DNA of 64,000 bases from an uncultured Gammaproteobacteria bacterium (GTDB taxonomy: Bacteria; Patescibacteriota; Microgenomatia; Daviesbacterales; UBA10151): positions 9,013-73,012 of the forward strand of contig CAYOOO010000004.1 in the NCBI GenBank assembly GCA_964405655.1, in the 5' to 3' direction. The position numbers and the translations under genes were made by a program. The notes beneath the pieces were generated by a model. It worked only from the letters and a program-made list of their open reading frames with translations. It did no database searches and was not told where the DNA came from. This document shows positions 17,157 to 64,000 of this stretch, in pieces. Within the stretch, counting starts at the first letter, position 1, and the number at the start of each line of letters is the position of its first letter.

Positions 17157-17158
17157 CT

Positions 17159-24982: not shown

Positions 24983-25000
24983 TCATTAAACCTAAACAAT

Positions 25001-26874: not shown

Positions 26875-26876
26875 AT

Positions 26877-38451: not shown

Positions 38452-38557
38452 CAGACAGAATTAATTAAATAATTGTTTTGATAGATTTTCCTCTTCAGTT
38501 GTTATACCATAACAAGATCAAATCTTAAGAGTCAAGTTATATTAATCAGGCTATAGA

Positions 38558-40495: not shown

Positions 40496-40496
40496 C

Positions 40497-45444: not shown

Positions 45445-45446
45445 AC

Positions 45447-46598
45447 TTAAAATAACTGGCGATATAATTGTTCAATTTTACTCCCTATAATATTCGAATT
45501 GTATCTACTCCTAGATCTGATAAAGGCTTTTTTTGCCAGTTCGGATCTTAAAGATTTACTATCTATCAACTTACTCATTTTCTTGACTAAATCTTGACCA
45601 TTTCCCTCCTGAAAAAATAAACCACAACTGCCCACTACCTCTCGAGTAACTTCAGTATCAGAAACAATGATAGGTAGACCAGACGCCATTGCTTCAACCA
45701 AAACCATCCCATATTGCTCTTCCCAGTCTTCTTGGCGTTCACTTGCTAGTATAAAAATATCTGCCAAGTTATATACTTCTGGCATCTTAGAGTATGGCAA
45801 TAAACCTAAGAAGTGAACATGATCACCAAGACCTAGCCTATTAGCTAGCTCCTTGAGTCTATTTTCTATTGCACCCTGACCTGCTAAGATCAATTTAAAG
45901 TCTACCTTGTACTTGGGTAAAGCAGCAACTGCCTTTATTAAGGTTTTAAATCCCTTTGCTTCAACCATCCTACCAATAGATAAAAGGACGGTCTGATCAC
46001 TATTTATTTTAAGCCTTCTTCTTAGCTTAGGGATGCCATTTATATCGGGTTTAAAAAGGTTTAAATCTACTCCCATGGGAATTAATTTAACTTTACTAGG
46101 ATCAGCTCCCTCGGCTATTAAAGTATTTTTGGCTTTGGTTGTCGGAACAACAAAACAATCAACACCTCTTATTACTTTTGCTTTAATATTAATTTGCTGT
46201 CTATAACTTTCATGACTTTTGGGAATAGTCTCCCAGACTGTGGCGACAACTTTTTTTATCATCCCCTTCTCTTTAGCTTTGACTGCCTGCCAGCTATAAC
46301 CATTATAAACTTCTGCAACATGGGCTATATCAAAGCCTTTGATAGATTTTTCCAGATTTATCAGAAATAAAGGACTTCCCAAGATTTGATATAAAAACTC
46401 TATTCCCAAAGGTATTTTACTAGCTATCTCGCCTAAGCAATGTAGATACCTTATGGGAATTTTTAACTCATCAGTTGCTAAGCTAGATTTAACCCCTTTT
46501 GACCCAATTGCCAGGATCTTGTTTTTTGCTCCAAGAGATTGGTAATTTACCATTTCCCACTTATTTAAAGAAGGCCCTCTGATAATTGCAATTTTCAT
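45447..46598 (-). CDS. GT4 (group 1) glycosyltransferase
   Basis: EQYGMVLVEAMASGLPIIVSD motif. Confidence 0.7.
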   Translation of the reverse strand: MKIAIIRGPSLNKWEMVNYQSLGAKNKILAIGSKGVKSSLATDELKIPIRYLHCLGEIASKIPLGIEFLYQILGSPLFLINLEKSIKGFDIAHVAEVYNGYSWQAVKAKEKGMIKKVVATVWETIPKSHESYRQQINIKAKVIRGVDCFVVPTTKAKNTLIAEGADPSKVKLIPMGVDLNLFKPDINGIPKLRRRLKINSDQTVLLSIGRMVEAKGFKTLIKAVAALPKYKVDFKLILAGQGAIENRLKELANRLGLGDHVHFLGLLPYSKMPEVYNLADIFILASERQEDWEEQYGMVLVEAMASGLPIIVSDTEVTREVVGSCGLFFQEGNGQDLVKKMSKLIDSKSLRSELAKKAFIRSRSRYNSNIIGSKIEQLYRQLF

Positions 46599-46603
46599 AT
46601 CTT

Positions 46604-48166: not shown

Positions 48167-48212
48167 ATCTTTTTCCTTTACAAACTAGTCTGTCTATGTA
48201 AAATTAGCTTAG

Positions 48213-48995
48213 ATGAATAGACCTAATAACATTCCATCAATTTCAGCTGTTATTATAACTAAAAACGAGCAAGAGGTAATTGAGGATTGTTTAAAAAGTA
48301 TTGCTTGGGTGGATGAAATCATTTTGGTTGATGACTTTAGCAGTGATGATACTGTCAAAATCGCCAAAAAATATACTAGAAATGTATTTCTCCACAAGCT
48401 TCAAACACTGGGAAAACAAAAACAATTTGCCTTAGATAAAGCCAGGGGTGATTGGATCATAATGCTTGATGCTGATGAGAGAATTGCTGAGAGTTTAAAA
48501 AAAGAGGTAATTGAGGCAGTTAGCAAGGGTAACTTTGATGCCTATAATGTTTATTTTCATCAATTTTTTTTAGGTCAACCTTTAGTTCCTACTCTTTCAG
48601 GAGGTCATCCCAGGATTTTTAAAAGGGGTCTTGGGAAAATCATTCCTGATGCAATCCACGAAAAGATAGTCATAAATGGGAGTATTGGCCAACTAAAAAC
48701 GCCCATTATCCATCTCTCCCACCGGAGCCTTTCTCAGCTAATCAGTAAGTTTAACCACTTTACAGATAAGGAGGCTAAAATTATGTTTGAACACGGTTCA
48801 AGAGTAGGTAAACTTACAATAATCAGTTCTTTAATTCATAATTTCTGGATCCGCCAAAAAGTCTACCAAGATTACAAATCAGGAATCAGAGGCCTGGTTT
48901 TGACGTCTCTTTTTTTAATTTATCATTTTCTAAAGTGGATCAAGATCTGGGAGTTACAAACTCTGGTAAAAGATGGAAAAAAGAGAAATCACTAA
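48213..48995 (+). CDS. GT2 glycosyltransferase
   Basis: ISAVIITKNEQEVIEDCL...ILVDDFSSDDT...MLDADE. Confidence 0.7.
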   Translation: MNRPNNIPSISAVIITKNEQEVIEDCLKSIAWVDEIILVDDFSSDDTVKIAKKYTRNVFLHKLQTLGKQKQFALDKARGDWIIMLDADERIAESLKKEVIEAVSKGNFDAYNVYFHQFFLGQPLVPTLSGGHPRIFKRGLGKIIPDAIHEKIVINGSIGQLKTPIIHLSHRSLSQLISKFNHFTDKEAKIMFEHGSRVGKLTIISSLIHNFWIRQKVYQDYKSGIRGLVLTSLFLIYHFLKWIKIWELQTLVKDGKKRNH

Positions 48996-49678
48996 GCGGT
49001 TTTTTGGCAAACAAATAAAAACTGGAAAGCTAACCCTTCAGGCCAAAGGCCAGAGATATGATATTCTAACTTTTTAAACCAATTAAATTCTCCTATAAGG
49101 GGATGAATCACCTTCATAAATAAAGGCAGTTGCGTAAAACCACCTGTATAATCGAACTTCACAACCTTTAGTCCTCCCTTCTTTATTAAATCCAGGGCTG
49201 TTTGTTTGGTGAAAAATCTGAGGTGAGTTTTGTCCATAATCCCCCAGTCAGTATACTCAAAGCGTCCCAGTAAATGGGATAACCTATTTGTCAGAAAAGC
49301 TATATTGGGAACAGAGATAATAATTTTTCCTCTCTTATCTAAGAGATTTGACAGATTAAGCAAAGTATCCTCTGGGTTTTTAAAATGTTCCAGGACATCT
49401 GCTAGCAGAATCCTGTTAAATCTTAGTTTTTTTATTTTTCTAAAAATAATTTTACTTTCTATATCGCCAACATAAACTTTCTGGCAGTATCTTAAGGCTT
49501 TTTTTGCTTCTGATGGATCGATTTCAACTGCAGTAACAATATTTCCTTTCTTTTGAAGCTTTTTAGATATGTAGCCGCTGGCGCAACCAACTTCGAGAAT
49601 TTTTTGGTTAGAGCCAATCTCAGCTAGAATTTTAGAGTGAATTCCATACTGGTCAGAGTTAAACCTATATTTACTCAT
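48992..49678 (-). CDS. Class I SAM-dependent methyltransferase
   Basis: ILEVGCASGYIS motif I, ADVLEHF, ISVPN. Confidence 0.7.
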   Translation of the reverse strand: MSKYRFNSDQYGIHSKILAEIGSNQKILEVGCASGYISKKLQKKGNIVTAVEIDPSEAKKALRYCQKVYVGDIESKIIFRKIKKLRFNRILLADVLEHFKNPEDTLLNLSNLLDKRGKIIISVPNIAFLTNRLSHLLGRFEYTDWGIMDKTHLRFFTKQTALDLIKKGGLKVVKFDYTGGFTQLPLFMKVIHPLIGEFNWFKKLEYHISGLWPEGLAFQFLFVCQKTA

Positions 49679-49729
49679 GAATATTTTTCTTGAATTATGA
49701 ATTTAGATTTTGTTATATAGTTAATTTTA

Positions 49730-51103
49730 ATGGGAAACCGGACTGCTAAATTTTTGCGCATCCTCGGGCTTATTCTATCACTTGTTAGTATAGGGACTTT
49801 TATTTGGTTTTTTAATATAAGCAGAGCGACTAACCCAGAAATTAAACTACTCATTTTATCTTTAGGAATTATAATCAACTTTGCTACCATAATCTGTCTT
49901 CTAAAACTAAGTTTGCTTAAGCGTTTTCAATCGATTCTTTTTATTTACCTCTTCATAGTCACCTTTTATCTTATTGTTGAAACTCCATTATCATGGATTA
50001 GCTGGGTGGCTGGATGGGATAGTAGCTGCTGGCTTTTTGAGGATTCAGGTAAAACAATCAGATTCGATCCAATATTCGGTTACAGATTAGAAAAACAGCC
50101 TTCAAGATATGCCAGGATCACCAAACATTACTTAGAGTATGTCGGAATTCAAAAAGGAAATAACTTAGGTTTTCCGGATGATAGTCAATTTGAACCAAGA
50201 AAAGATCGGGTTGGCTTAAAAAGAATTGTCGTATTTGGTGACTCGTTTACTTCAGCCCAATATATTGCTGAAAATTGGCCTCAGCATAGTGAAATTTTAC
50301 TTCAAAACCAAGGATATCAGGTTGAGCTGATGAATTTTTCTCAGGAAGGTATTGGTCTTGCTAACTGGTGGAGAACATTAACTGAGGTTATAGAAAAAGA
50401 CAACTACGAAATCGACGGTATTATCTTTGCTGTTTTCAGAGGGGATCTAAAGAGAAAATTTGTTTTTGCCACCCATCAAAATAATCCTCATCCTTTATCA
50501 GGTCACTTAGATAGATGGCTACCAACCTACTACCCAGCTACTTTAGCAGAGGCAAAAAAGGCTATGAAACCTCTCAGCGAAGCAGTCATTGTCGATTCTA
50601 GTGTTTTTGATAAGGCAATTGGGACTACTCATTGTCCTTTTCAGGTTTCTCAAAAATTCAAACCTTATCTTATGGAAAAAGTGAATATTCAACTTGACCT
50701 AATGCTTCATAATTTTAATAAGGCCAGCGTCAATACTGTTAATAGTAATTTAAGCTACCAGGAAGCTTCAGATCGGCAGAGAATCATCGCCTCAATCAAA
50801 GACTTTCTTACCAAAAAAGGTCTGTCAAGTTTAGTTGTATATATACCTTCAAGAGAAGAAGAGACAAATAAGGCCAGCTCCTACTCGCCTGCTGAATTTG
50901 ACGATACTAAAAAATTTAGTCAAATTCTCGGCTCCTCATTTATAGATGGTAGGGAGCTTTATGCTAAAATGTCAAAAAAAGAGATTAAAAATAGCTTTTT
51001 CCCCTATGATGGTCACTGGAATCAGCTTGGATCAAACCATTTTGCAGATTACATAAGCAGACAGATACCTAATGTTTTCTCTTTAACCAAAGAGTCTAAA
51101 TAG
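49730..51103 (+). CDS. Membrane-anchored SGNH/GDSL-family hydrolase (probable glycan O-acyl esterase/transferase)
   Basis: N-terminal TMs, GDS block IVVFGDSFTSAQY, and a C-terminal DGHWN (DxxH catalytic dyad). Confidence 0.55.
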   Translation: MGNRTAKFLRILGLILSLVSIGTFIWFFNISRATNPEIKLLILSLGIIINFATIICLLKLSLLKRFQSILFIYLFIVTFYLIVETPLSWISWVAGWDSSCWLFEDSGKTIRFDPIFGYRLEKQPSRYARITKHYLEYVGIQKGNNLGFPDDSQFEPRKDRVGLKRIVVFGDSFTSAQYIAENWPQHSEILLQNQGYQVELMNFSQEGIGLANWWRTLTEVIEKDNYEIDGIIFAVFRGDLKRKFVFATHQNNPHPLSGHLDRWLPTYYPATLAEAKKAMKPLSEAVIVDSSVFDKAIGTTHCPFQVSQKFKPYLMEKVNIQLDLMLHNFNKASVNTVNSNLSYQEASDRQRIIASIKDFLTKKGLSSLVVYIPSREEETNKASSYSPAEFDDTKKFSQILGSSFIDGRELYAKMSKKEIKNSFFPYDGHWNQLGSNHFADYISRQIPNVFSLTKESK

Positions 51104-51111
51104 AAAAGCTT

Positions 51112-51297
51112 ATGCTAAAAAACATTGGTCAAGTAGCGGGATTTTTATCTGGTATATTTTTTATGTCTACTGTTTGGTTTCTAATCTTAAGATTATCTGG
51201 ACGCATCCCTCAAGACTTTGGATACTTTCAAGTTTTGATAATTGTAATTTTGGTGGTAATCTCTGGATTAACTTTAACAAAATATCTAAATGGTTAA
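51112..51297 (+). CDS. Small two-TM membrane protein
   Basis: 61 aa, hydrophobic. Overlaps the next small gene by 8 bp. Confidence 0.3.
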   Translation: MLKNIGQVAGFLSGIFFMSTVWFLILRLSGRIPQDFGYFQVLIIVILVVISGLTLTKYLNG

Positions 51298-51541
51298 ACT
51301 AAAGCTTTTTTTTCAAGGATTTAAATTAGGATTATTAGAATTTAGTCAGTCATTAAATGTAATTTTAAATTCAGCTTTACTGTTTGTAGTTTATTTTGCA
51401 GTCATAGGTACAACAGCAATTATTGCTAAGATTTTGGGTAAACATTTCTTGCAGCTAAAATTCTCCAAAAAAACAAAAAGCTATTGGATTGATTTAGATT
51501 TGGATAAAAAACCTTTAGATCAATATCTCAAGCAATTTTAG
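51290..51541 (+). CDS. SxtJ-like small membrane protein (carbamoyltransferase-associated)
   Basis: 83 aa with one central TM. Small SxtJ-like proteins are commonly encoded directly upstream of NodU/CmcH carbamoyltransferases. Confidence 0.4.
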   Translation: MVKLKLFFQGFKLGLLEFSQSLNVILNSALLFVVYFAVIGTTAIIAKILGKHFLQLKFSKKTKSYWIDLDLDKKPLDQYLKQF

Positions 51542-51549
51542 CATACTAA

Positions 51550-53307
51550 ATGTATATTTTAGGAATCTCCTGTTTTTATCACGACTCGTCAGCAGCTTTG
51601 CTTAAAGACAGTGTGATTATTGCTGCAGCAGCACAAGAGAGGTTCTCACGGATCAAACACGATACATCTTTTCCCACCGATGCTATCAATTTTTGTCTTA
51701 AGCAGGCTGGAATTACCATCGAGGAAATAAATTATATCGGTTTTTACGAGAAACCTCTTTTAAAATTAGAAAGAATACTATATCAACATCTCGAAATGTT
51801 TCCTCTGAGTTTAAAAACTTTTTTGTCATCTATGCCCTCTATTTTAAGCCAAAAATTGGCAGTAGTCAGTCTGATAAAAAAAAGGCTGGGATTTAAAAAA
51901 GCTGTCTTTTTTATTGAACATCATCTAGCTCATGCTGCCAGCTCATACCTACCCTCCTCTTTCAACAAAGCAGCTATAGTTACTTGTGATGGTGTGGGAG
52001 AATCGACAACCACCAGTTTTGGGATAGGGTCTGGAAATGACATTAAACTACTTAAACAAATAACCTTTCCTCACTCATTAGGTCTTTTGTATTCAACTAT
52101 TACTGCTTATTTAGGTTTTAGTGTCAATAATTCGGAATATAAGGTTATGGGACTTTCCGCTTATGGGGATAATAACTCAAAAACTAATAAATACTACAAA
52201 AAACTTAAACAAATAATTGATATAAAAAGTGATGGTAGTTACCACTTAGATATGGATTATTTGAATTATCACTTCAGTGACAAAATGCCTTCAAAAAAAC
52301 TTTGTCAATTGCTTGGCGGACCTGTTAGGAAGCCACTTGACCAAATAACTAACCGTCACCAAGATATTGCTGCAGCTGCCCAATTAATGCTTGAAGAGGT
52401 TTTAACAAAAATTTTCCAGTTTGTCCAAAAAACTACAGGTGAGGAGAATGTGGTTTTTGCAGGAGGAGTAGCATTAAATAGCGTCTTCAATAGCAAGATT
52501 CTGAGTAAAACCAAGTTTAAAAATATTTGGATTAGCCCTGATCCTGGAGACGGAGGAGGTAGCGTTGGAGTATGTTGTTATATCTACAATACCATTTTAG
52601 GCAAAAAAAGAATTACTCTTGATAGTGCTTATCTAGGCCCTAAATTTTCTTCAAAAGAGATAGAAAGATTTTTACTTAAAAACAAAATAGTGTTTAAAAA
52701 ATTTAGAAACAAAAAGCAGCTGATAGAAAGATGCGCAAGACTTATATTTGAAGATAAAATCCTTGGCTGGTTTCAGGGTCAGATGGAATGGGGCCCTAGA
52801 GCACTTGGAGCGAGGAGTATTTTATCAAATCCTTGTAATCCAAATATAAAAGAAATACTAAACACAAAAGTTAAGCATCGGGAAAAATTCAGACCATTTG
52901 CACCAGTTGTTTGTCAAGATGACACTAAGCTATACTTTGAAACTGGCTCAGATACTTCAAAGCTGAGCGATTTTATGTTGACGGTTTATCCGATTAAGAA
53001 AATTTGGCGCAAAAAAGTTCCAGGCGTAACCCATATTGATGGTAGTGGCAGGCTACAAACTATTAAAAGAGCTCAAAATCCCCTTTTTTATGACCTGATA
53101 AAAAGATTCGGTCAGCTTTCAGGGGTCTCTATGCTAATAAATACCTCATTTAATATTCGTGGTGAACCAATAGTTTGTACACCTTTGGATGCTTACAAAT
53201 GCTTGATGGGAACAGGGATTGATTATTTAATTATGGGTGAGTTTTTGGTAAAAAGAGATGATAACTCAAAAGATTTTTGGGATAGTGAAAAATATGCAAA
53301 GGACTAA
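51550..53307 (+). CDS. Carbamoyltransferase, NodU/NolO/CmcH family
   Basis: N-terminus MYILGISCFYHDSSAALLKDSVIIAAAAQERFSRIKHD is the conserved Kae1/YgjD-like fold of carbamoyltransferases. Length is 585 aa. The C-terminal domain has GGVALNS and GPRALGARS. Confidence 0.85.
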   Translation: MYILGISCFYHDSSAALLKDSVIIAAAAQERFSRIKHDTSFPTDAINFCLKQAGITIEEINYIGFYEKPLLKLERILYQHLEMFPLSLKTFLSSMPSILSQKLAVVSLIKKRLGFKKAVFFIEHHLAHAASSYLPSSFNKAAIVTCDGVGESTTTSFGIGSGNDIKLLKQITFPHSLGLLYSTITAYLGFSVNNSEYKVMGLSAYGDNNSKTNKYYKKLKQIIDIKSDGSYHLDMDYLNYHFSDKMPSKKLCQLLGGPVRKPLDQITNRHQDIAAAAQLMLEEVLTKIFQFVQKTTGEENVVFAGGVALNSVFNSKILSKTKFKNIWISPDPGDGGGSVGVCCYIYNTILGKKRITLDSAYLGPKFSSKEIERFLLKNKIVFKKFRNKKQLIERCARLIFEDKILGWFQGQMEWGPRALGARSILSNPCNPNIKEILNTKVKHREKFRPFAPVVCQDDTKLYFETGSDTSKLSDFMLTVYPIKKIWRKKVPGVTHIDGSGRLQTIKRAQNPLFYDLIKRFGQLSGVSMLINTSFNIRGEPIVCTPLDAYKCLMGTGIDYLIMGEFLVKRDDNSKDFWDSEKYAKD

Positions 53308-53523: not shown

Positions 53524-55650
53524 TTATTTATTATGTAAGCTGTTCTGTTTTAATTTAGAAATAATCTTATTACCAAACAAAGGATATGAGAGGAAAAGAC
53601 CTAGGGTTAAAAAGCTTATTAAGTAGCCCAACCAAACCTGCCAGGTAGTTGAGTGCTTAAGAATAATGTCTATTTGGCCAAACTTTTTAGGTTCAAGAAG
53701 GATAAAACCTAACGGGTCCTTGGAAACCCTAGCTGAAACTTTATTGGCTTTATCATAAGCGCTCCAGCCTGAGTCAGCTGTCATCTGGACGAGGATCCCT
53801 TCCCTGTTATCAATCTTGCCTGTAATCTGGTAAGTGCTGTTGTTAATGACTTTAAAATCTAATTGATTTGGGCTGGAATTTTCCAGCCAATTAATATACC
53901 TTAAAATTCTTTCCTTATCGTCAGCCTTAACAGGAACCTTAATATTCTTAATTTGATCTAGATTGATTGATTTAGATAGGGATTCCTTTTTTAAGGGAAT
54001 CTGATAAATAATATCTGCACCCAGCTTGTCTTTGACAGGATAATTCTCAAAGCGTTCAAAGTTTTTAGTATCATGGTAAAGCTCAGTCGAGCCTGGAGTA
54101 GTTATAACAGCATATTTGGCATTGATTATTCTTAGCCAAGCATCAGCGATTTCTGGGCTTTTACCATTGGTTAACTGATAATAGATATGGTCTGGCCATC
54201 TATTAGTTGAGGCCTGATAAAGACCACCTCTTAACTGCCAGATATTACTAAACCAGTTTAAATAAAATCCATAGTTTCCAGATATAAAAACTCTCTCCCC
54301 TTTTGATAGGTCAACATCTTCTTTCAAGGCTTGGGCTACTTTAAATTCAGAAGTTTTTTCTAAATCAACCACTTCTGAGGCTGCTTGATTTGCGGTTTTA
54401 ACAAAGGGTTTGATATAAGTTGAAGAGAAGACTAAAAATACTATTACCAAAGCCCAAGTAAAAATATTAGCCATCTTCCATTTCCTCTCTAAAAGTCTAG
54501 AAATCATTCCTACAAATATACCAATCAAGAGGGCCATACTAAGATCAACCTCAGCGTTATACCTTAAAGCCTGAGGCAAAAGTTCTATTCTATAAGCAGA
54601 CTCATCTGGAGGAGCTGACAAGTAATAGGTTGCCACAACAGTAAACATCAGCAAAAACCAGACTAGGCTGGAGGCTAAACCAAAGTCTTTGATAAAGCGG
54701 CGGATTAGTATAAAAGCTATGAAAATAGCCACAAAGCCTGCTATCCATCCCCAAGGAAACGAAGAGATTAAGATATTACTTGTACCTCCACCTTCTCTAA
54801 AAAAGGTTGATAAAAAAGTTAAGTTATACCAAAAAGAGATTAGGCCTAAAGAAGCAACTCCGGCCAGAATAAAAAGTAGTAAGTTTTTGCTGCGGTTTGT
54901 ATCTGACTGACAAAATTTAACAAAAGCCATCGAAGCCATCAAAAGAATCGTGGCAAATAGACCAATCGCATTCGTTAGACCAACCAAACCAACAAAGATG
55001 GCTGTTAAAAACAGATTAACTCTTTTGGGCTTTTCTAAAAATCTGGCAAAAAAGAGTCCAGCTATTGGAATAAAAATTAGCGAAAACAGGTGAGGTCCTT
55101 CTCCCCATCGAACCAGAATAGTAAATCTTCTGGGATCCCAGAAATCTGCTGAAAACCTATCTTGAGCGACTTCTCCACTTTCTAGAATAAAGTAGAAGAT
55201 AGTTGGCAAGACTGAATATAAAACACCTGCTACTACTCCTCCAATTAGTCTTTTTGATAGCTGCCAAGCCAAAAAAAAGAGCGAAACTGGGCCAACAATA
55301 TAGGCAAAGCCAGTTAAGTTGCGGTAAGCCTCCCAAAGCTCGAAGCCCCAAAATTTATGCAGCATTGCCTCAAGAACTGGCAAAAGCGGCGTATAAAAAA
55401 CATGGAAAGGAAATCCTAGATACCAAAAAGGAGCCCAGGATGATCCACCAACTGGCAGACCAAAATCCACCAAAAATCTGCCCATTGAGACATAGGAAAC
55501 CTCGATTGAGCCTATATTAGCTGGTCCATTTTTTCCCAGCCAGCCTGAGATCATCTGGTAATTTAACCAATAGAGAAAAATCACAACTAAGATCGCAGAG
55601 ACAAAAGTTATGAGGACGCTTAAAACCTTCTTTTTAGAAAATTGTGGCAT
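53524..55650 (-). CDS. Polytopic membrane protein with C-terminal extracytoplasmic domain (same family as the giant paralogs)
   Basis: 708 aa. N-terminal ~12 TM, then NWFSNIWQLRGGLY, the counterpart of the W..PL.RGY motif of 32484/35530. C-terminal TM. Confidence 0.45.
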   Translation of the reverse strand: MPQFSKKKVLSVLITFVSAILVVIFLYWLNYQMISGWLGKNGPANIGSIEVSYVSMGRFLVDFGLPVGGSSWAPFWYLGFPFHVFYTPLLPVLEAMLHKFWGFELWEAYRNLTGFAYIVGPVSLFFLAWQLSKRLIGGVVAGVLYSVLPTIFYFILESGEVAQDRFSADFWDPRRFTILVRWGEGPHLFSLIFIPIAGLFFARFLEKPKRVNLFLTAIFVGLVGLTNAIGLFATILLMASMAFVKFCQSDTNRSKNLLLFILAGVASLGLISFWYNLTFLSTFFREGGGTSNILISSFPWGWIAGFVAIFIAFILIRRFIKDFGLASSLVWFLLMFTVVATYYLSAPPDESAYRIELLPQALRYNAEVDLSMALLIGIFVGMISRLLERKWKMANIFTWALVIVFLVFSSTYIKPFVKTANQAASEVVDLEKTSEFKVAQALKEDVDLSKGERVFISGNYGFYLNWFSNIWQLRGGLYQASTNRWPDHIYYQLTNGKSPEIADAWLRIINAKYAVITTPGSTELYHDTKNFERFENYPVKDKLGADIIYQIPLKKESLSKSINLDQIKNIKVPVKADDKERILRYINWLENSSPNQLDFKVINNSTYQITGKIDNREGILVQMTADSGWSAYDKANKVSARVSKDPLGFILLEPKKFGQIDIILKHSTTWQVWLGYLISFLTLGLFLSYPLFGNKIISKLKQNSLHNK

Positions 55651-56100
55651 TCAGCTAAGTATCTTCTCATCAATCATAGCAAATAACATAAAAGAAATAA
55701 TCAGCGTAATCACCAACCCAAATGGGTCAAATAACCCAATATAGTTTCGCATTGGGACAAAAAAACTTTTAAAGACAAAAACGGATAGCAGCGTGGCTAT
55801 AAAGATTAGTAAGGCCAACAACACTTTTAAGAAAAAGTCAACCTTTTCTGAGTTGGTTTTTTTAAGAGCGTAACCCTGATTTATGAGATAGCTTTTGAGA
55901 ATCTGTCCCGCTGGTCCTTTTTCCTTAAGAAGATAGGAACAAGCAACGCACTTTTCAGTAGAAGTTAACTGATGCTCAATCTGTTTGACATGACTAGTAT
56001 CCTCAGACTTTAAAGCTTCAAACAGATCTATTAAATGGCTTTGACAGATATATAAACCCTTACCAGACGGGCTCTTCACTTCTTTTTCTTTTCTGCTCAT
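55651..56100 (-). CDS. Small membrane protein with N-terminal Cys/His cluster
   Basis: 149 aa. N-terminus has CQSH...CVAC, followed by two TM helices. Confidence 0.3.
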   Translation of the reverse strand: MSRKEKEVKSPSGKGLYICQSHLIDLFEALKSEDTSHVKQIEHQLTSTEKCVACSYLLKEKGPAGQILKSYLINQGYALKKTNSEKVDFFLKVLLALLIFIATLLSVFVFKSFFVPMRNYIGLFDPFGLVITLIISFMLFAMIDEKILS

Positions 56101-56137
56101 AACGTTTTATGTAATTAAAAATTGGGAAGAACTAAAG

Positions 56138-57598
56138 CTAGCTTACCCTCTCCTCAGGCTGTTTGATATTGGCAATCCTGGGAAACAGGAAGATAATTAT
56201 CAAAAAATAGATCAGGGTGGCTAAAGATAGGCTTTGAGCTACAGTAACAAAGGTCCTATCAGGACTTTGTGGTCTGGCTATACCACCAACTCCTAAAGCT
56301 TTTTGAACTAAAATTGGTGCCTCACTGACTTCTTTTTGGGCAGCCTTAACACTAAAGTAGCTACTCATTCCCAGCATTACAATCAGAGCAGTTGAGATTA
56401 GGATCAGGAATGAGAAGATAACTGTACTTTTGAGCCTAATCAAATAGTTTTTAATCAGAAACTGAGAAAGAGGAGTAAATAAGACTGCTACTGCAAAAGA
56501 GGTAGCTACAGAAAGTTCGATTAGATATCTTTCAGCAGTAAAAATCCCAGTCACTCTAAGGTTTTTACTAATCCAATAGAGGCCAAGATAGATCGATAGC
56601 ATGACAATTCCTAGGAAAAATGGCTGGAGTTTAACCCGGCGGTCAAAAATTAGATACAGAAGCGTTCCGACAACTGGAACCAGTGGTATAGTTATTGGCA
56701 AAGAACGAAGCAAACCATTTATTGCGAATTCAACATGTTTTAAGCTCATAATAGTCTGTAAGTTTGAGGGTAGATACCAAAAAAGAGAAAGCCCAAAGGC
56801 TGAAGCTACGACAAAGATTAGCCTGATAATTTTAACTTTTAAGTTTCCTTGAAAAATGCCAGCCACTGTCAGTATCAAATAAAGTATCATCAAGTTAAAT
56901 GTAGCAAAGGGGGAGATAATTGCTATTGCAGCAGTTCCTAAGGCTGTAGCAATACCAGCTGTAGATAAACCAGAGGATAAGAAAGACTGTAAACCTATTA
57001 AAAGCAGCGGAATAAAGGAGAAAGCTAAGGCATGAGCACCGTCGCCATTTAAGATTGCCCCAATCAAAGGTAATCCTTGTTTTAAAAAAGGATTTGGCAG
57101 GACAAATAGCAAAGTCGCCAAAAAAGCAATTGAATCATGTTTTAAAACATTTCTTCGAACAAACAGATAGAAGCTTAAAGGGGCTGTAGATAAAGCTAAG
57201 ACCGTCAGGACTAAGAAAAATTGGTACCTTGTCAATATATTCAACCCTTCAAGAAAATTAGATACCATCATCAAAGCTTGAGATGAGGCGAAAGCTGGAG
57301 TTAAGTTAAGCTGAAAAATGGGCATAACGAAAAAGAGATTAAGTACATAAATAGTTACTAAGAAGACCAGGCTGACTATGTTTAGATCTCCTCCCTCACT
57401 CCAAAGAAAGTTTTTCTCAATATTATTGGCAAAACTGGTATTACCAAGTCTATTGGAAAAACGAATACCTCTTTTTAGATCAGTTGTTAGATCTGGTTCT
57501 AAATTTTCAGGATTTGAACTATTATTTTGTTCAATCAGCTTAGGATCAGATACAGTTTGATCTTCCTTGACAGGAAGCGTTTTGGGCAGTTTTTTCAT
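56138..57598 (-). CDS. Polytopic integral membrane protein, hypothetical
   Basis: 486 aa with more than 10 TM helices and an N-terminal polar region. Confidence 0.35.
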   Translation of the reverse strand: MKKLPKTLPVKEDQTVSDPKLIEQNNSSNPENLEPDLTTDLKRGIRFSNRLGNTSFANNIEKNFLWSEGGDLNIVSLVFLVTIYVLNLFFVMPIFQLNLTPAFASSQALMMVSNFLEGLNILTRYQFFLVLTVLALSTAPLSFYLFVRRNVLKHDSIAFLATLLFVLPNPFLKQGLPLIGAILNGDGAHALAFSFIPLLLIGLQSFLSSGLSTAGIATALGTAAIAIISPFATFNLMILYLILTVAGIFQGNLKVKIIRLIFVVASAFGLSLFWYLPSNLQTIMSLKHVEFAINGLLRSLPITIPLVPVVGTLLYLIFDRRVKLQPFFLGIVMLSIYLGLYWISKNLRVTGIFTAERYLIELSVATSFAVAVLFTPLSQFLIKNYLIRLKSTVIFSFLILISTALIVMLGMSSYFSVKAAQKEVSEAPILVQKALGVGGIARPQSPDRTFVTVAQSLSLATLIYFLIIIFLFPRIANIKQPEERVS

Positions 57599-57658
57599 AA
57601 ATTTGAAGCTTACAACTAATCTTAGTCATATATTTTAGGAAATATCAATAGGTTATTT

Positions 57659-59491
57659 TCAATAGTCTTCTGTATCAACAGAGCTCTTTCTTAAAATTTT
57701 TGTTAACAAAGGATAGAAATAATCATAAAAAACAAATACAACAAACAATATCAAAAACAAAAACATGAGTGGTATTAACCAACTAACTCTAAAAAGCTGA
57801 AATTTTAATAAATAGTTTTGTTTTCCAGTTTGCTTGGGAATCAAAACCATATTACCAAGGCTATCTGAAGTAAGCTTGCCTTGACCAGATACAATATCCC
57901 AACCTGGATGGTAGGTTATAGCTAGAGAAATAATCTTACTTTTATCCAAATCTGCCTCAATCTCAATCTGGTTTGGTCTAAGAACTACCTGGTGCAAATT
58001 ATCTTTCAATTTTGATACATACTGATTTACCCTAATATTATCTGATCCATCTTTAGGAGGCTTTAAATTTAATAAACTTTTATCAGCAATCCTGACTAAG
58101 TTACCAGAGTCTAACTTAAATATAAAATCTCCTTGCTTATTACCAATAGTTTGCCAGTTTTTAAACTTATCAATAAATCTAAAATCTTTAAAATATTCCC
58201 TAGATTCTTCTTGATTAACCAAGATAAAATTTGTTCCTAAGGCTTCGAGCCACTTTTTAGATAGATCTCCATCTGCTTCTTCCCTGATTTGATAGGCAGC
58301 ATGACGCCAAAAAGGATGAACTGAAGCCTCATCCACTCCCCCTCTGAGCTGCATTAGATTTAATTTAGAATTTAGCCAAAATACAGCTGAACCTGAAGTA
58401 AATATCCGCTGATTAGCAGGCACATCTTTCAATAAACCCAGGATATCTTTCTGATAGGTTAAGTTTTTTGAATCTGTCCAAGTTTTAAATATTTGAAAAT
58501 AGATTAAAACTGACAGCCCAAAAACTAAAACCAAAGCTAATAAGCCCCATTTTTTAACTCTGTCCTTAGCAAAAAAACTAGATAAAATTAGTGCTAACCC
58601 AAACTGGATCTCGCTTGTAAAACTAATCCAATCTATCAAAAAATCAGGATCAGAAATAAATCTAAATAGGCTTAAGAACCCGAAAGCAGTTAGAAAGAAA
58701 AGACTAAATTTTGATAGAAAAGAAAGCTTGATCTTTTTTAGCTTGACTACCCACAAGGCAATTATTATTGGTAATAGGTTAAAAAGGAATGAAAAAATCA
58801 GTTTGATTAAAGAAAAAAGTGGCTTCCCACTCAAGGAAGGATTTTTTAAGATAGCCCACCAAACCTCGCTAGTATACCAAAAAGAGATAGTAACTAAGGC
58901 TAAACAAATTAGTAAAATTATTTTAAAAATTAGATATACTCTTAGGGATTTTTTAACTTCTATAGTTAGAAAAAGGCAGATTAAACCTATCAAAATAGTC
59001 AATAATGACGAAATATTAATTAATACAGCAAATACTACTAAAATATATAAATATAGATCATTTTTTAAGTTATTTTTAGTTAAAAAGTTACAAAATTGAT
59101 AAAAAATCCAGATAGAAACTGATAAAGCTATCATTTGCAAACCACTAGAAAAACTAAGCAAAAAGTAGCTTAAAGGAAGGGTTAAAAACAACACTTGTGC
59201 TAGTATTGATTGTCTTTTTTCTGCTCCTAACCTTTTTGTTAACTTGTATACTCCCAAACTTCCAAAGATTACAGCCAAAAACATCAAAATAAAATAGCCT
59301 GTGGTTGTATCAAGTCTTAATAAGCTTTTAAAAATCCATAAACTAATTGGTATAACTGGTCCAATTAAAAAGTTAAAGGGATTGCCAAGGTACCAGTTGG
59401 GATACCAGCTGAAGTCGGGAAAATTTTTAATAAAGAAGTCTGATAAAGCAATTACCGAGGGTATTAAGGATGTTTGGGGAATATTAAGCAT
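57659..59491 (-). CDS. Polytopic membrane protein, paralog of 53524..55650
   Basis: 610 aa. FWLNSKLNLMQLRGGVDEAS motif. C-terminal TM LIPLMFLFLILFVVFVF. Confidence 0.45.
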   Translation of the reverse strand: MLNIPQTSLIPSVIALSDFFIKNFPDFSWYPNWYLGNPFNFLIGPVIPISLWIFKSLLRLDTTTGYFILMFLAVIFGSLGVYKLTKRLGAEKRQSILAQVLFLTLPLSYFLLSFSSGLQMIALSVSIWIFYQFCNFLTKNNLKNDLYLYILVVFAVLINISSLLTILIGLICLFLTIEVKKSLRVYLIFKIILLICLALVTISFWYTSEVWWAILKNPSLSGKPLFSLIKLIFSFLFNLLPIIIALWVVKLKKIKLSFLSKFSLFFLTAFGFLSLFRFISDPDFLIDWISFTSEIQFGLALILSSFFAKDRVKKWGLLALVLVFGLSVLIYFQIFKTWTDSKNLTYQKDILGLLKDVPANQRIFTSGSAVFWLNSKLNLMQLRGGVDEASVHPFWRHAAYQIREEADGDLSKKWLEALGTNFILVNQEESREYFKDFRFIDKFKNWQTIGNKQGDFIFKLDSGNLVRIADKSLLNLKPPKDGSDNIRVNQYVSKLKDNLHQVVLRPNQIEIEADLDKSKIISLAITYHPGWDIVSGQGKLTSDSLGNMVLIPKQTGKQNYLLKFQLFRVSWLIPLMFLFLILFVVFVFYDYFYPLLTKILRKSSVDTEDY

Positions 59492-60089
59492 TGAACTTCG
59501 CCTCTTCTAAGTTTTTCTTCTCTTCCAGAACAAATGAGTAGCTGAACCACCAAAATAGGAACAACCAACCTACTATAGCCAGCGTTGACCCCCAATCATG
59601 AAAGATAATCCCAACTCTTTGTCCGAAAAAATAGGCTATTAGTACTACAACTACTATTCTTATAAGATTAATAAGAAAGGTGCCTAAAAGCCCAATCAGC
59701 CAGGCCTTGACCTTAGAAATATTAGTGTATTTTTCGCCTTGAAAACCTATCCAGCCTGTCATGATAAAAAACAGCAGCGACTGCCAGCCAATACAGTTCC
59801 AAGCCAGCTCAATTAGAAAAGGACTTTTACCTGAGTTAATCGCTAAATACTCCCCGACTACCTCAGGTTTAAAACCAAGCGGGTAAAGTATCACGCCAAC
59901 CATTCTGATCTCCCAGGGAACAACAATGTTTTGAATAACTTTATAGTAATCAAGCCTAATAACCATTCTGGTTAAAAGATCATTAAATGTATTCATAAAA
60001 GGCAAAATAACCAGCATCAAAACCAGGATTAAAAAGATATAGAGGAAAGTCTGTTTTTGATTATTAGCTTTTACTAGTCTTTTTTCCAT
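59484..60089 (-). CDS. Exosortase/archaeosortase-family-like intramembrane protein (candidate sorting transpeptidase)
   Basis: 201 aa with about 6 TM helices. Membrane-embedded AWNCIGWQSL (a C-x-G-x-x-S-L block like the catalytic Cys block) and, 45 residues later, FLINLIRIVVV (N-x-x-R-I, like the conserved Asn/Arg block). Confidence 0.4.
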   Translation of the reverse strand: MEKRLVKANNQKQTFLYIFLILVLMLVILPFMNTFNDLLTRMVIRLDYYKVIQNIVVPWEIRMVGVILYPLGFKPEVVGEYLAINSGKSPFLIELAWNCIGWQSLLFFIMTGWIGFQGEKYTNISKVKAWLIGLLGTFLINLIRIVVVVLIAYFFGQRVGIIFHDWGSTLAIVGWLFLFWWFSYSFVLEEKKNLEEAKFNA

Positions 60090-60092
60090 ATT

Positions 60093-60953
60093 TTAAGGTT
60101 TTGAAAGAGTTAGATCTTCGATTGGACCAATAAAAATACTGTTATTTTTTCTGGTGGCAATTCGCTCAGGATTCGTCTCAACCTTTAAAACTCCGTTAAT
60201 AAAGATCTTCTTGACCCTCTTCTCACCTGTAAAATCCCAGGTCAGGGTAACCTCGAATGTTTTACCCTGATAATCTGATCCTAAATCTGCATCCGGTTCC
60301 GGATCATCTGATCCTGAATGACCGTTATTATCATAGGTATCAAAAACTAAAAGTCTCCCTGAACCTGCAATAATAAATGCACCCCTGTTATCAGAGTTAT
60401 TATAGCTTGCCAAAACCAAGGTTCTATCTTTATCCCCTCCCTCAATAGGCCAATCAGCTTTAACGCTAAATTTAATAGTGCCTTGTTTAATATTAAACAT
60501 TTCATTCCCGCTGTAGGCTTTCAAATTACCAATATCCTTAATACCAAATAACTGAATCTGCTCCCGACGAGGCTGGAAATCATCCGGGACTGTAAAGTTA
60601 TTAGCTAGGCTTTGGGATAGTTCAGATTGCTCTTCTTTTTTAACGCCACCTTGATTGTTTTGGACAGAAGAAGATGGTCTAGGGGTTGATTTTGCTGATG
60701 AATCGGTTGCACTCTTGGCTGAGGAGGTACTGTTTGGTAGATTTTGACCCTTATCTAATAATTGACTGTCTAAGAATTCTCTTGGGACTGACGGGTTTTT
60801 AATTCCTAATAAAACTCCAACAAAAACTATTATTGCCATTATATCAATCACCATCAAAAGTCTCTTAATTTTTTTGGAAGTCAAAAAGTTAGCTTTTTGA
60901 TAGTTTAAATTAGGTTTTTGATGTTTAAAATGTTTTTGGCTAAAATTTGTCAT
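60093..60953 (-). CDS. N-terminally anchored extracytoplasmic protein with Ser/Thr-rich linker
   Basis: 286 aa. TM MVIDIMAIIVFVGVLLGI, then a low-complexity STSSAKSATDSSAKSTPRPSSS linker and a beta-rich domain. Confidence 0.35.
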   Translation of the reverse strand: MTNFSQKHFKHQKPNLNYQKANFLTSKKIKRLLMVIDIMAIIVFVGVLLGIKNPSVPREFLDSQLLDKGQNLPNSTSSAKSATDSSAKSTPRPSSSVQNNQGGVKKEEQSELSQSLANNFTVPDDFQPRREQIQLFGIKDIGNLKAYSGNEMFNIKQGTIKFSVKADWPIEGGDKDRTLVLASYNNSDNRGAFIIAGSGRLLVFDTYDNNGHSGSDDPEPDADLGSDYQGKTFEVTLTWDFTGEKRVKKIFINGVLKVETNPERIATRKNNSIFIGPIEDLTLSKP

Positions 60954-63900
60954 AATCTTTTACTCTCCCTTAATTTCTTTAGTAAGCCTGGTAAAAACGG
61001 CACCAGAAGCACCAAAACCAAGGTTTTTTCTGGCAAAGTACCAAACTCAAAGTTAGACCCCTGCCTAAGTACCACACCGATCTGGCTAGTCCCGTAGCCA
61101 GACAGAGGCCCTGAGATATTACCTAAATCTCCGGCCGTAAATTTATAAGAGTATGTTGATCCCCAAGAGATTGAGCTGGCAGCGCTGTCAATAAAATAGG
61201 CCTGCTCACTGGTATCCATAATTCCATGGGCATAGATCCTGGTATTTTGAGAATCATAAGTTAGGGAAACCTGGGTTAGGTTAGTCTGGCTGGTAAAAGG
61301 GGCTGTTAAACTGGTAACTGAAGGGAAGGCATTGGTGGTTGTGACATCGGCAAATTGAACAGTTGGTACTCCGGCGCTATCTGTATCGTAATAAGCAAAT
61401 TTACAATCTGTACTGCTTGGACAATAGACTGCTCCTTTAAATCTGGGGCCGGGCATGGCTTGAACTGATCCAGAAGAACAGCCGGCATTATCGCAATCTA
61501 CAAAATTAAGTCCGTAGTCATTGATATCTGAAATATAGGTTAATTTGCAATCAGTGGCAGACGAACAATACATCGAGACAGAGGGGTAATTATTGACATC
61601 TTGCTTAGCACTATTTGGCCCATCATCAATATCTCCAGCCGTACTATCAATCGTTGTAACAGAATCAGTTGCAGAACAAGTAGTCGTGCTGGTAGAGCAA
61701 TCTATAAAGAAAACATCGCTAGTACTGGGATCATTATAGACAATTTTGCAGTCAGAGGAAGCAAAACACTTGATTGACATAGCCACTGAGTTATCTACCC
61801 CTCCAACAGACGCATCCAAGGTTGTGCTTGTGCCTGTTGAGCAGCCAGCATTACCGCAGTCCCTAAAAATTAAATCCGAACTAGCCTGAGTGTGCCAGAC
61901 TAATTTGCAGTCAGTTACTCCCAAGTTACAATCCATCGAGACAAAAACTCTAGCAGCGCCGGCGTTCCCATCAACGTCAGTTGTGGCATTAGGCACGCTG
62001 CAAGATCCATCATTGCAATCAAGGAAGGTGACATCATTTGTGACAGGATCATTATATAAAACCCGGCAATCTGTACTTCCGCCTGTACAATCAACATCAC
62101 TATGGGAAGTATCAGCCGCCCCTCCTAAATCACTATCAAGCGTGCTGGTAGCGTCTGTAGTCGAACAAGCTGAATTTGAACAATCAATCATTTTTAGTAA
62201 AGGGGTGGCTGTATCCATGTCATCACCATAGACAACTTTGCAGTCTGTGCTTGAGACGCACCAGATTGAGGGATTGGCAGCATCAGAAGAATCACCAATA
62301 TCAGAATCTAGCGTTGTGGTAGTGCCTGTTGAACAAGTTGCATCATCACAATCCCTAAAAATCAGCTTAGGGGCGGTTGTGTCCAAATCATCTGTATAAA
62401 CAAACTTACAGTCAGTAGCTGACACGCAGTACATATCAATATCTGATAAACCATCATAACCAATTGCTCCTGTATCGCTGTCGATTGAGGTCTCGGTAAA
62501 ATCAGTTGTGCAGCATTTATAAAAATTGGTCGAGGTTGTGCCTGAGACTGATAAAACCCAGACAGTTGTTCCATCGGTGGTGACAGAGTAAACATTATCT
62601 GTCACTGAGGCGATGGTTAGATTGTTAGTTGTCCAATCAACTGTTCTGGCATTTAACTCAGAGTAAGATAGATCTCCGTCCTGAAAAACCATCCCAACTC
62701 TGGAAGCACCATCAATGTTTATTACCACTGGCCGATCACTGGCTGTTAGACCATTACCAAAGGTAATCAGAGAGGTGGTGACAGCAGTAGAAGTACAAGT
62801 TCCGTCAAGTCCAGTCACATAATTGACTCCAACAGAGGTTCCTGTTGAGGTATCAGAGTAAGCCATCACTGCAGTCCTCCCATCCACAGCTACCACACTA
62901 GGCATATAGGTTGTGCCCAGCGAGGATGCGACAATAGTACATTTTGTACCTAAGGCATCTGAAGCAGCTAAATCAATTATCTTGCCCTCAATACCAGTAG
63001 TGGTTGTCGAGTCCTGCCAAACAGCAACTATGCTTGAAGCGTTATAGGAGACCGAAATGTTATTATTATCTGCATCTGCTGAATCAATATCAACAGCTGC
63101 TGCCCAGCTCGAGCCACCATTAGTAGATTTTTTATAAGAAACGCTTTGACCGTCAGCATAAAAGGCATACCAGTTAATTGTCCCTGAAAGATCTGTGTAA
63201 TAAATCTTCATCGAGATATAGTCAACAGAGGCGGTATTTGTTCCCTTAGTCCCTGAGGTATCTCGATAGGAAAATCCAATTCCAAAATTGGCATTAGTCA
63301 CATCTGATCTGCTCAAACTCACCCCCCAAAGCTGTTTGTTGCCTCCATAGGTGATAGTAGCCTCAGTTGTAGGTATAGCTGCGTTAGTACTTTTATCATC
63401 GCCAACTAACCTTCCCGCCTTGTATAGCCTGATAGAATTCTCCTGTAAACCAGCTGCAGCTGCTTTCCTCTCGACATTGACCTCGATACCATCAATTACC
63501 GCAGTCGATGGTATAGTGGAGAAATCAAAGTTAGTCACCTTAAGATAGCCTGATGTGTATTGACCGGCAGTAGTGACCACGGCTGTTGCATAAGTATTAT
63601 TACTAGATATAGCGTTAGAGGGATTGGTCCAAGAGACGTACCCGATAGTTCGATCGCTCTCAAAACTAGCTCCGGCAATATGTCCAACTGTACCTGTAGA
63701 AGAAGAGACTGCTACCACCTTCCTTTGCATGCTGCCATAGCTAGTTTCCCCCTCAGTAATTCCGCCTGAAACTATGACTGTTGGGTCAATCACGATTGGA
63801 AATTCTCTCTTGCTTTCTTTTAACCATTCTAAGGCTTTCCTATTGATATGCTTTGTTAGCTTATAACCAAGCTGCTGTTTTTCCATAGTGATAGAAAGAT

Positions 63901-64000
63901 CATTATTTTTAACTTGTTTGGCATCTTGGGCAAAAGGAGCGGCATATTTGAAAATCTCTTGACCATCTTCGGTAAAGATCCCGAAGGTATCAGGCCTATC
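60950..64000 (-). CDS. Large surface protein with tandem four-cysteine repeats and a C-terminal LPEKT-TM-basic sorting-signal-like tail (5' end outside window)
   Basis: The reading frame stays open upstream of the first ATG (63886) to the window edge. There are about 7 repeats of C-x4-DCK-x15-18-DC-x4-C. C-terminus is TLPEKTLVLVLLVPFLPGLLKKLRESKRL. Confidence 0.6.
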   Translation of the reverse strand, partial: DRPDTFGIFTEDGQEIFKYAAPFAQDAKQVKNNDLSITMEKQQLGYKLTKHINRKALEWLKESKREFPIVIDPTVIVSGGITEGETSYGSMQRKVVAVSSSTGTVGHIAGASFESDRTIGYVSWTNPSNAISSNNTYATAVVTTAGQYTSGYLKVTNFDFSTIPSTAVIDGIEVNVERKAAAAGLQENSIRLYKAGRLVGDDKSTNAAIPTTEATITYGGNKQLWGVSLSRSDVTNANFGIGFSYRDTSGTKGTNTASVDYISMKIYYTDLSGTINWYAFYADGQSVSYKKSTNGGSSWAAAVDIDSADADNNNISVSYNASSIVAVWQDSTTTTGIEGKIIDLAASDALGTKCTIVASSLGTTYMPSVVAVDGRTAVMAYSDTSTGTSVGVNYVTGLDGTCTSTAVTTSLITFGNGLTASDRPVVINIDGASRVGMVFQDGDLSYSELNARTVDWTTNNLTIASVTDNVYSVTTDGTTVWVLSVSGTTSTNFYKCCTTDFTETSIDSDTGAIGYDGLSDIDMYCVSATDCKFVYTDDLDTTAPKLIFRDCDDATCSTGTTTTLDSDIGDSSDAANPSIWCVSSTDCKVVYGDDMDTATPLLKMIDCSNSACSTTDATSTLDSDLGGAADTSHSDVDCTGGSTDCRVLYNDPVTNDVTFLDCNDGSCSVPNATTDVDGNAGAARVFVSMDCNLGVTDCKLVWHTQASSDLIFRDCGNAGCSTGTSTTLDASVGGVDNSVAMSIKCFASSDCKIVYNDPSTSDVFFIDCSTSTTTCSATDSVTTIDSTAGDIDDGPNSAKQDVNNYPSVSMYCSSATDCKLTYISDINDYGLNFVDCDNAGCSSGSVQAMPGPRFKGAVYCPSSTDCKFAYYDTDSAGVPTVQFADVTTTNAFPSVTSLTAPFTSQTNLTQVSLTYDSQNTRIYAHGIMDTSEQAYFIDSAASSISWGSTYSYKFTAGDLGNISGPLSGYGTSQIGVVLRQGSNFEFGTLPEKTLVLVLLVPFLPGLLKKLRESKRL

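Follow-up and report, generated by a model that had tools for sequence, protein, structure and literature searches.

A candidate exosortase system paired with a polysaccharide synthase in a Patescibacteria genome

Relation to described exosortase and archaeosortase systems

In L. plantarum, the exosortase XrtG is encoded in one operon with a tagged protein and two glycosyltransferases (PMC12854382). In the PGF-CTERM system of archaea, the archaeosortase ArtA acts on a large glycosylated surface protein whose processing is coupled to lipid attachment, and the H. volcanii enzyme needs Cys173, Arg214, and Arg253, the first two of which are spaced by 41 residues (PMC9263693). Here, we describe a gene pair related to these systems from a 64,000-nt stretch of a Patescibacteria contig (CAYOOO010000004.1, positions 9,013 to 73,012 of the forward strand, assembly GCA_964405655.1), referred to as the window. 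The pair consists of a 201-aa protein of the exosortase/archaeosortase family and a large open reading frame (ORF) whose product ends in a tripartite C-terminal signal (LPEKT, a hydrophobic helix, and a basic cluster) and, read at its full length, appears to be a membrane-bound polysaccharide synthase. To our knowledge, what exosortases cleave and what they attach is not established, and several subfamilies, XrtF among them, have no known target. The clade to which the window enzyme belongs offers an unusually clean case, with one enzyme, one adjacent substrate, a sharp motif, and natural single-chain fusions that would lend themselves to expression and direct assay.

The closest known analogue of the pair is the XrtG/Firmicu-CTERM system (TIGR03110). 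Both are found in bacteria without an outer membrane, both form a compact operon of a tagged protein, a small exosortase, and glycosyltransferases, and in both the ratio of enzyme to target is apparently one to one. They differ in that the window enzyme reaches 12.8 bits on the XrtG model, which has a cutoff of 102.75, and in that the tails described here miss the Firmicu-CTERM model as well as the other signal models. Moreover, a family-2 glycosyltransferase (GT2) is here fused to the tagged protein, and the additional enzymes are predicted to be of the GT-C fold. With the XrtA (EpsH)/PEP-CTERM system of Gram-negatives, the locus shares a Pro-Glu at the start of the helix, often with Val or Ile before it and with basic residues after the helix, and the placement of the enzyme in an exopolysaccharide locus. 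Unlike in that system, Lys, Asn, Arg, or Tyr stands where P-E-P has its second Pro (position +4 of the signal), there is a PxxP pattern in the helix, a single adjacent substrate takes the place of dozens, and the enzyme is only ∼200 aa long with no match to an Xrt subfamily. Like ArtA, the window enzyme is predicted to be a polytopic Cys enzyme, with a conserved and putatively equivalent Cys and Arg, and ArtC of the PEF-CTERM system is its best subfamily hit (27 bits, far under the cutoff of 100). Unlike the archaeosortases, it is bacterial, its signal reads VPE and not PGF or PEF, and it has His164 in place of Arg253 of ArtA. The system is therefore distinguished by the VPE-x...PxxP signal, a single processive-synthase substrate, enzyme-substrate fusions, and an unnamed family of GT-C-like partners. 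No paper in the literature covered ties an exosortase or archaeosortase to Patescibacteria or the Candidate Phyla Radiation (CPR), and none of those listed in a looser search that took in Chloroflexi mentions exosortase; the founding 2012 survey lies outside that coverage, so an earlier mention is possible.

The exosortase-family enzyme and its tagged neighbor

A preliminary description of the window, made from its letters without database searches, had pointed to three tightly spaced, co-oriented genes as a candidate sorting operon. Their arrangement on the minus strand is confirmed (spacing in Table 1), and the features named at that time are all present in the translation: the LPEKT tail with its hydrophobic stretch and basic cluster, an N-terminally anchored 286-aa protein, and the Cys and Asn/Arg blocks of the 201-aa protein. 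The sequence of the last assigns it to the exosortase/archaeosortase superfamily, outside all named subfamilies. The profile search agrees with the earlier naming of the gene as exosortase/archaeosortase-like, with a match of 36.8 bits (cutoff 23, E 3.5e-9) to the exosortase/archaeosortase signature TIGR04178 of NCBIfam over model positions 2-91 of 97. The protein stays below the cutoff of every named Xrt or Art model; besides ArtC and XrtG, these include ArtE (15.5 bits, cutoff 95), ArtF (14.5 bits, cutoff 150), and XrtM (11.3 bits, cutoff 125), and no further NCBIfam subfamily model was matched at E ≤ 1. The operon had been called uncharacterised, but the gene already carries an annotation: NCBI lists an identical 201-aa sequence from a metagenome-assembled genome (MAG) under the name 'exosortase/archaeosortase family protein [Candidatus Daviesbacteria bacterium]'. 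It also lists 487 close relatives, for the most part from Microgenomates MAGs. A profile built from 26 relatives and run against 1.84 billion representative proteins matched only 492 clusters at E ≤ 1e-3, so the clade is compact and well separated from other exosortases. In a species-level genome scan, the clade was present in 266 genomes of Patescibacteria and Chloroflexota (Anaerolineae, Dehalococcoidia).

Many CPR-like copies, with enzymes 55-67% identical to that of the window, come from MAG records labelled 'uncultured Gammaproteobacteria bacterium' or 'Bathyarchaeia archaeon' (loci L006, L007, L009, L013, L017, L018, L022, L037, L070, and others). The labels are probably placeholders or a result of mis-binning, and the apparent archaeal presence is thus not to be trusted unchecked.

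The putative nucleophile Cys99 lies in the motif WNC99IGWQS and is followed after 45 residues by Arg144 in N141-L-I-R144-I. Among close relatives, Cys99, Asn141, Arg144, and His164 are invariant. Conservation in a set of 45 divergent representatives (23-46% identity) is 44 of 45 for each of Cys99, Arg144, and His164 and 40 of 45 for Asn141. Of the three residues initially proposed to be conserved, Cys99 and Arg144 are borne out and Asn141 less so, while His164 had been missed. The AlphaFold2 model of the protein (predicted local distance difference test, pLDDT, 83.5) is mainly helical with one short beta-hairpin, and sequence and fold searches of the PDB found no solved structure that resembles it past generic helices.

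The signal was followed through 80 related loci, which were translated and of which 78 have DNA upstream of the exosortase homologue. Tails were detected as [VIL]-[P/D]-E, a hydrophobic stretch, and a Lys/Arg cluster, with Pro permitted at position +4. A same-strand ORF with such a tail ends at most 3.5 kb upstream of the exosortase gene in 53 of the 78 loci, and a looser pattern gained few extra ones; the tail is conserved among orthologues of the large protein. Elsewhere among the 3550 ORFs (at least 50 aa) of the 80 loci, there were eight tail matches. Seven are spurious chance occurrences of LDE, ADE, or LPE, and the eighth, carried by a GT2 protein downstream of the enzyme, is a true signal. 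The pairing of tail and exosortase gene is therefore far above chance.

Anchored on the Glu, 54 signals including the window tail give the consensus [VIL]-P-E-[KNRY]-x-[LW]-x-[LF]-L-x3-P-[FL]-[LI]-P, with Pro at +13 and +16 and a Lys/Arg cluster that starts 15-23 residues past the Glu. Scored with a position matrix derived from 52 other loci, the window tail reaches 59.9 bits, within the training range of 36.5-65. It matches none of the NCBIfam sorting-signal models, and the PEP_CTERM model TIGR02595 does not detect it even at an E of 10. Of ten tails compared with the latter model, nine miss it, and only that of the distant locus L072 passes, at 16.2 bits against a cutoff of 16. Orthologue tails conserve [VIL]PE, vary at position 5, and have no Gly after it. 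The proposal that LPEKT opens a dedicated tripartite signal, neither LPXTG nor canonical PEP-CTERM, thus holds. Taken together, the alignments and models support a conserved tripartite signal of PEP-CTERM type, which we refer to as the VPE class, linked genetically to the exosortase. As a sorting tag, VPE was uncatalogued before.

The large ORF has no stop before the window edge at base 64000; the ATG at 63886 that is listed as its start (978 aa) is an artefact of that edge, with no stop up to 64000. A second contig carries the same locus (7 mismatches in 4962 overlapping bases) and contains the complete gene (L081:200-6403), which encodes 2067 aa. Residues 419-728 form a GT2 domain with scores above the cutoffs of PF13641 (84 bits), PF00535 (80.5 bits), and PF13632 (61.5 bits). 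Its QxxRW motif reads RQRMRW (residues 645-650), and transmembrane segments flank the domain, with helices at about 297-367 and further ones at 687-740. The best NCBIfam match of the domain is PgaC_IcaA (97.7 bits, cutoff 422), followed by cellulose synthase and NodC; no NCBIfam equivalog cutoff is reached. By these domain matches, the tagged protein is predicted to be a processive family-2 glycosyltransferase of the PgaC/BcsA/NodC type. Because the window edge cuts the ORF, the GT2 half had gone unnoticed, and what had been described as a Cys-repeat surface protein does have the repeats but is the ectodomain of a 2067-aa fusion of helix-turn-helix (HTH) domains and a GT2 synthase.

Between synthase and ectodomain lies an internal signal-anchor-like segment (residues 852-882) with RKK before it and AEA-NQ after it. 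One may speculate that this is a signal-peptidase site that would free the ectodomain from the synthase. The ectodomain (residues 883-2039, 1157 residues) contains 23.5% Ser+Thr, 9.6% Asp, and a BNR-like STNGGSSW motif. Its seven Cys-repeat units, with four Cys each, follow the consensus C-x5-DC[KR]xVY...F-x-DC-x4-C. Neither the repeats nor the ectodomain have a Pfam match or a PDB sequence match, and the repeats are too diverged to be visible to a tandem-repeat finder at the DNA level. The repeat block occurs in only nine of the 53 related signal-bearing proteins, which marks it as a variable module. By comparison, the GT2 domain is in the same ORF as the VPE tail in 30 of these loci, the remainder being mostly cut by contig ends, and in six loci it is found in the adjacent upstream ORF (a true split or a frameshift). 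GT2 is the most constant part across loci, whereas the ectodomain between it and the tail varies, so the invariant partnership is that of an exosortase with a GT2 synthase bearing a VPE-tagged outer extension.

The synthase has cytoplasmic, regulatory-type domains at its N terminus. In Microgenomates, the 2067-aa protein included, these are a pair of HTH domains of transposase type (here residues 9-49 and 141-180; HTH_28 50.7 bits, and HTH_23). The region (L081:200-1070, beyond the window edge) resembles IS481/IS3, and an HTH on a membrane synthase is odd. In Chloroflexota, a CheY-type receiver-like domain replaces the HTH (upstream ORFs of L039, L055, and L065; judged by reading the sequence) and lies beside a histidine kinase and a LuxR-type regulator.

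The strongest evidence that signal and enzyme are tied is their natural fusion in both orders. The profile search identified P0316 (946 aa) and P0330 (1227 aa), in each of which a single chain comprises GT2, ectodomain, 'EVPEN', a transmembrane helix, a basic linker, and the exosortase domain; P0322 and P0287 are fragments of this type. In P0280, P0297, P0304, P0305, P0308, and P0353, the exosortase domain comes first and is followed by a transmembrane helix, an ectodomain, and a C-terminal PG[IM]VV[PSD]E tail with its transmembrane and basic parts. From these fusions, we infer a cytoplasmic location for both termini of the enzyme. A seeming 'exosortase fusion' of 677 aa in L062 proved to be a wrong-frame ORF in high-GC DNA and was discarded.

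Two diverged exosortase paralogues, about 42-47% versus 71% identical to the window enzyme, occur together in one Woesebacteria contig (L002/L032) and in one Daviesbacteria genome (L008/L033). Every copy has a separate giant GT2 protein beside it, and each of these proteins bears a signal variant of its own, such as 'LQVPENLLIFLPLVLFIP' and 'LQIPENLLGFLPLGLLLP'; this suggests duplicated enzyme-substrate pairs that evolve together.

Proposed function and alternative readings

We consider it likely that the pair constitutes a dedicated exosortase system, one enzyme for one substrate, built on a polysaccharide synthase. In the 80 loci, there is essentially one signal for each exosortase gene, either adjacent to it or fused. 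By analogy with ArtA/PGF-CTERM and XrtA/PEP-CTERM, the internal anchor and the VPE helix would fix the ectodomain at its two ends, and the exosortase would recognize the VPE motif, at the outward-facing end of this last helix, and attack via Cys99. The tail would then be hydrolysed, which would release the C terminus of the ectodomain, or the ectodomain would be moved to an acceptor, for example a lipid head group or a glycan. GT-C enzymes typically use lipid-linked sugars at the outer membrane face, and those encoded downstream may glycosylate the ectodomain or lengthen the polymer from lipid-linked donors. The expected product would be a processed, probably glycosylated surface module that is linked to, or associated with, the exopolymer that the protein itself synthesizes. 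Such a physical link of an exosortase with GT-C-type enzymes and a processive polysaccharide synthase would offer a concrete model for coupling exopolymer synthesis with surface-protein processing. This is relevant to cell-envelope construction in ultra-small uncultured Patescibacteria, whose surfaces mediate host attachment.

A further proposal is that the exosortase is a transpeptidase that covalently links the ectodomain by its C terminus, close to or at the VPE Glu, to the glycan produced by the GT2 domain of the same chain or by a GT-C partner, or to a lipid-linked glycan. We think this unlikely. If true, it would imply a self-assembled, proteoglycan-like surface coat in CPR bacteria and Chloroflexota, and the fusions would be self-processing modules that open an in vitro route to exosortase chemistry.

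Several observations weigh against a dedicated processing system. The score of the 201-aa protein on Pfam PF09721 is marginal, at 22.6 bits just under the gathering score of 25.7; the same family is precomputed on many of its homologues and reaches 35 bits on fused relatives. The suggested equivalence of Cys99/Arg144 with Cys173/Arg214 of ArtA is drawn from the model match and the spacing (45 versus 41), and the third conserved residue is His164 where ArtA has an Arg. No signal was detected in about one third of the loci, many of which lie on short contigs or have GT2 on the downstream side. In 26 of 68 loci, Chloroflexota among them, a gene of the GT-C-like family is found no more than 3.5 kb downstream of the exosortase, and these genes are therefore frequent companions of the pair but not obligatory ones. 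Finally, processing of the signal in this clade is argued by analogy, and the helices of the synthase already anchor the substrate in the membrane, so that 'sorting' in its usual sense is not obviously needed.

These last two points also speak for the main rival, in which the tail is an uncleaved C-terminal anchor, and the exosortase homologue, itself without protease activity, docks on the helix as a partner or scaffold of the synthase. The conserved PxxP pattern could serve helix-helix docking, and the presence of enzyme and helix in one chain fits a permanent complex as well. However, the near-invariance of Cys99, Arg144, and His164 is that expected of an active cysteine transpeptidase or protease, and the invariant Glu, as [VIL]-[P/S/D]-E, sits exactly at the boundary of ectodomain and helix as in other exosortase signals. 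The conservation of these residues disfavors docking, which we regard as quite unlikely.

The preliminary description had instead envisaged a sorting enzyme with several substrates, including two proteins from the other end of the window that end in LPKTG and PEIPG. Their tails are present in the sequence as described (Table 1), both with a hydrophobic stretch before Arg/Lys residues, and classical PEP-CTERM systems do serve many substrates (PMC12188702). On the VPE matrix, however, the LPKTG protein scores 22.1 bits and the PEIPG protein -0.4, under every training signal and far from the 59.9 bits of the window tail, which places both outside the exosortase system. LPKTG is a canonical sortase A-type (LPXTG) motif, and the protein bearing it implies that the genome encodes a classical sortase outside the window. 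With one adjacent or fused substrate per enzyme across the loci, and with a GT2 giant beside each copy in both two-paralogue genomes, the several-substrate proposal is not upheld and appears very unlikely.

That LPEKT is itself a degenerate LPXTG for such a sortase, with the exosortase gene a bystander, is exceedingly improbable: the motif starts with LP and has Thr at position 5, and a sortase is implied in the genome, but the orthologues keep [VIL]-P-E with a variable position 5 and no Gly, the sortase motif TLxTC is found in no ORF of the window, and the fusions and gene adjacency bind the signal to the exosortase.

Neighboring genes and the remainder of the window

The three-gene core of the proposed operon stands, and its extent had been missed, as it runs on into downstream membrane proteins of putative GT-C type. 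Seven ORFs, from the large ORF to that of a 708-aa membrane protein, form a co-oriented block on the minus strand (53524..64000; Table 1). The plus strand opposite it holds only short ORFs of at most 123 aa that lie inside genes of the block. In a sequence scan, promoter-like sites in the 53-64 kb region were at chance level and terminator-like sites lay within coding regions.

Table 1. Positions of the features discussed, in window coordinates.
Feature	Position	Strand	Remarks
Large ORF	60950..>64000	-	1016 aa in window, residues 1052-2067 of the 2067-aa protein
Seven tandem 4-Cys repeats in ectodomain	61403..62428	-	units of 48-67 aa
Tripartite C-terminal signal	60953..61036	-	LPEKT, LVLVLLVPFLPGLL, KKLRESKRL
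286-aa ORF	60093..60953	-	N-terminal transmembrane segment LLMVIDIMAIIVFVGVLLGI; 4-nt overlap with large-ORF stop
201-aa ORF (exosortase/archaeosortase family)	59484..60089	-	3-nt gap after 286-aa ORF
Cys99 of 201-aa protein (putative nucleophile)	59793..59795	-	from translation
Arg144 of 201-aa protein	59658..59660	-	from translation
His164 of 201-aa protein	59598..59600	-	from translation
610-aa multi-transmembrane protein	57659..59491	-	start overlaps 201-aa ORF stop by 8 nt
486-aa multi-transmembrane protein	56138..57598	-	60-nt gap from 610-aa ORF
149-aa small protein	55651..56100	-	37-nt gap from 486-aa ORF
708-aa membrane protein	53524..55650	-	0-nt gap from 149-aa ORF; last gene of co-oriented block
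NodU/CmcH-type carbamoyltransferase	51550..53307		glycan island
AlgX-like SGNH protein	49730..51103		glycan island
Wzx-type flippase	46604..48166		glycan island
PMT_2 protein	43035..44576		glycan island
PMT_2 protein	41363..43063		glycan island
GT87, weak	39230..40495		sub-threshold, 20.2 bits (cutoff 25)
1025-aa membrane protein, PTPS_related	32484..35561	-	PF10131, 33.8 bits
PMT_2 protein	26877..28313		glycan island
PEIPG protein	14363..15421		ends GPEIPGW, Ala/Val/Gly-rich helix, RRRR-ATPPYYP
398-aa secreted protein (LPKTG protein)	13118..14314	-	ends ELPKTG, LPFAGALLGGLLPLGL, RLRK, and 24 extra residues

Sequence searches of Pfam, NCBIfam, and the PDB found no match for the 708-aa protein, and its homologues are all annotated as hypothetical, without a Pfam domain. 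Its AlphaFold2 model (pLDDT 90.5; predicted template modelling score 0.90) consists of a membrane domain of the 13-helix type and an outward-facing C-terminal alpha/beta and beta-sandwich domain. The best Foldseek matches in the PDB are the oligosaccharyltransferases AglB, PglB, and STT3, followed by AftD and DPY19 (E 2.5e-8 to 1e-6, probability 1.0, TM-scores only 0.36-0.46). These matches indicate a GT-C fold, and the model points to a GT-C-type protein of an unnamed family. Glu50 in SIEVSY is invariant across 34 homologues and is a candidate for the acidic residue that GT-C enzymes carry in their first outer loop. The 610-aa protein is a paralogue of this family (hhalign probability 99.9, E 3.4e-35) whose homologues, present in 35 related loci, in many cases follow the exosortase gene directly, and the 486-aa protein, with homologues in 14 loci, is distantly related to the membrane part of the family (hhalign probability 93.5, E 2.3e-7). 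The 149-aa protein has N-terminal Cys pairs (C-x2-H ... C-x2-C, zinc-ribbon-like) and two C-terminal transmembrane segments, and no homologue of it was found in the 80 related loci. None of the 610-, 486-, and 149-aa proteins has a real Pfam or NCBIfam hit. New annotation models are justified for the enzyme subfamily, for the VPE-type signal, and for the unnamed GT-C-like family.

After the N-terminal anchor of the 286-aa protein, which is encoded between the tagged protein and the exosortase, come a linker rich in Ser, Thr, and Pro and a conserved C-terminal domain of ∼150 aa. Homologues of this protein occur in only four of the 80 loci (L002, L018, L019, and L023), each in the same position between the two genes. 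Searches of NCBIfam, Pfam, and the PDB (the last by single sequence and by profile) gave no significant match; a LamG-like impression of the protein was borne out by no search and is not claimed.

Beyond the block, positions 17000..53300 form a glycan-biosynthesis island with several GT4 and GT2 enzymes, S-adenosylmethionine-dependent methyltransferases, the weak GT87 candidate, the PTPS_related protein, and the genes so marked in Table 1. The PTPS_related family (PF10131), to which the 1025-aa membrane protein belongs, is one that we take to be associated with XrtG loci in Firmicutes.

No real Pfam or NCBIfam hit was obtained for the LPKTG or the PEIPG protein. The former contains repeated 'TDWWNQTA' and 'GPQDNQWENT' motifs, Pro/Gln/Ser-rich stretches, and an unusually long tail after RLRK. 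Both proteins are Ala/Pro/Gly-rich, which is atypical for the window, and the GC content at 12000..16000 is 0.40-0.43 compared with ∼0.33-0.36 for most of the window. This rise may reflect acquired DNA or a composition bias of low-complexity secreted proteins.

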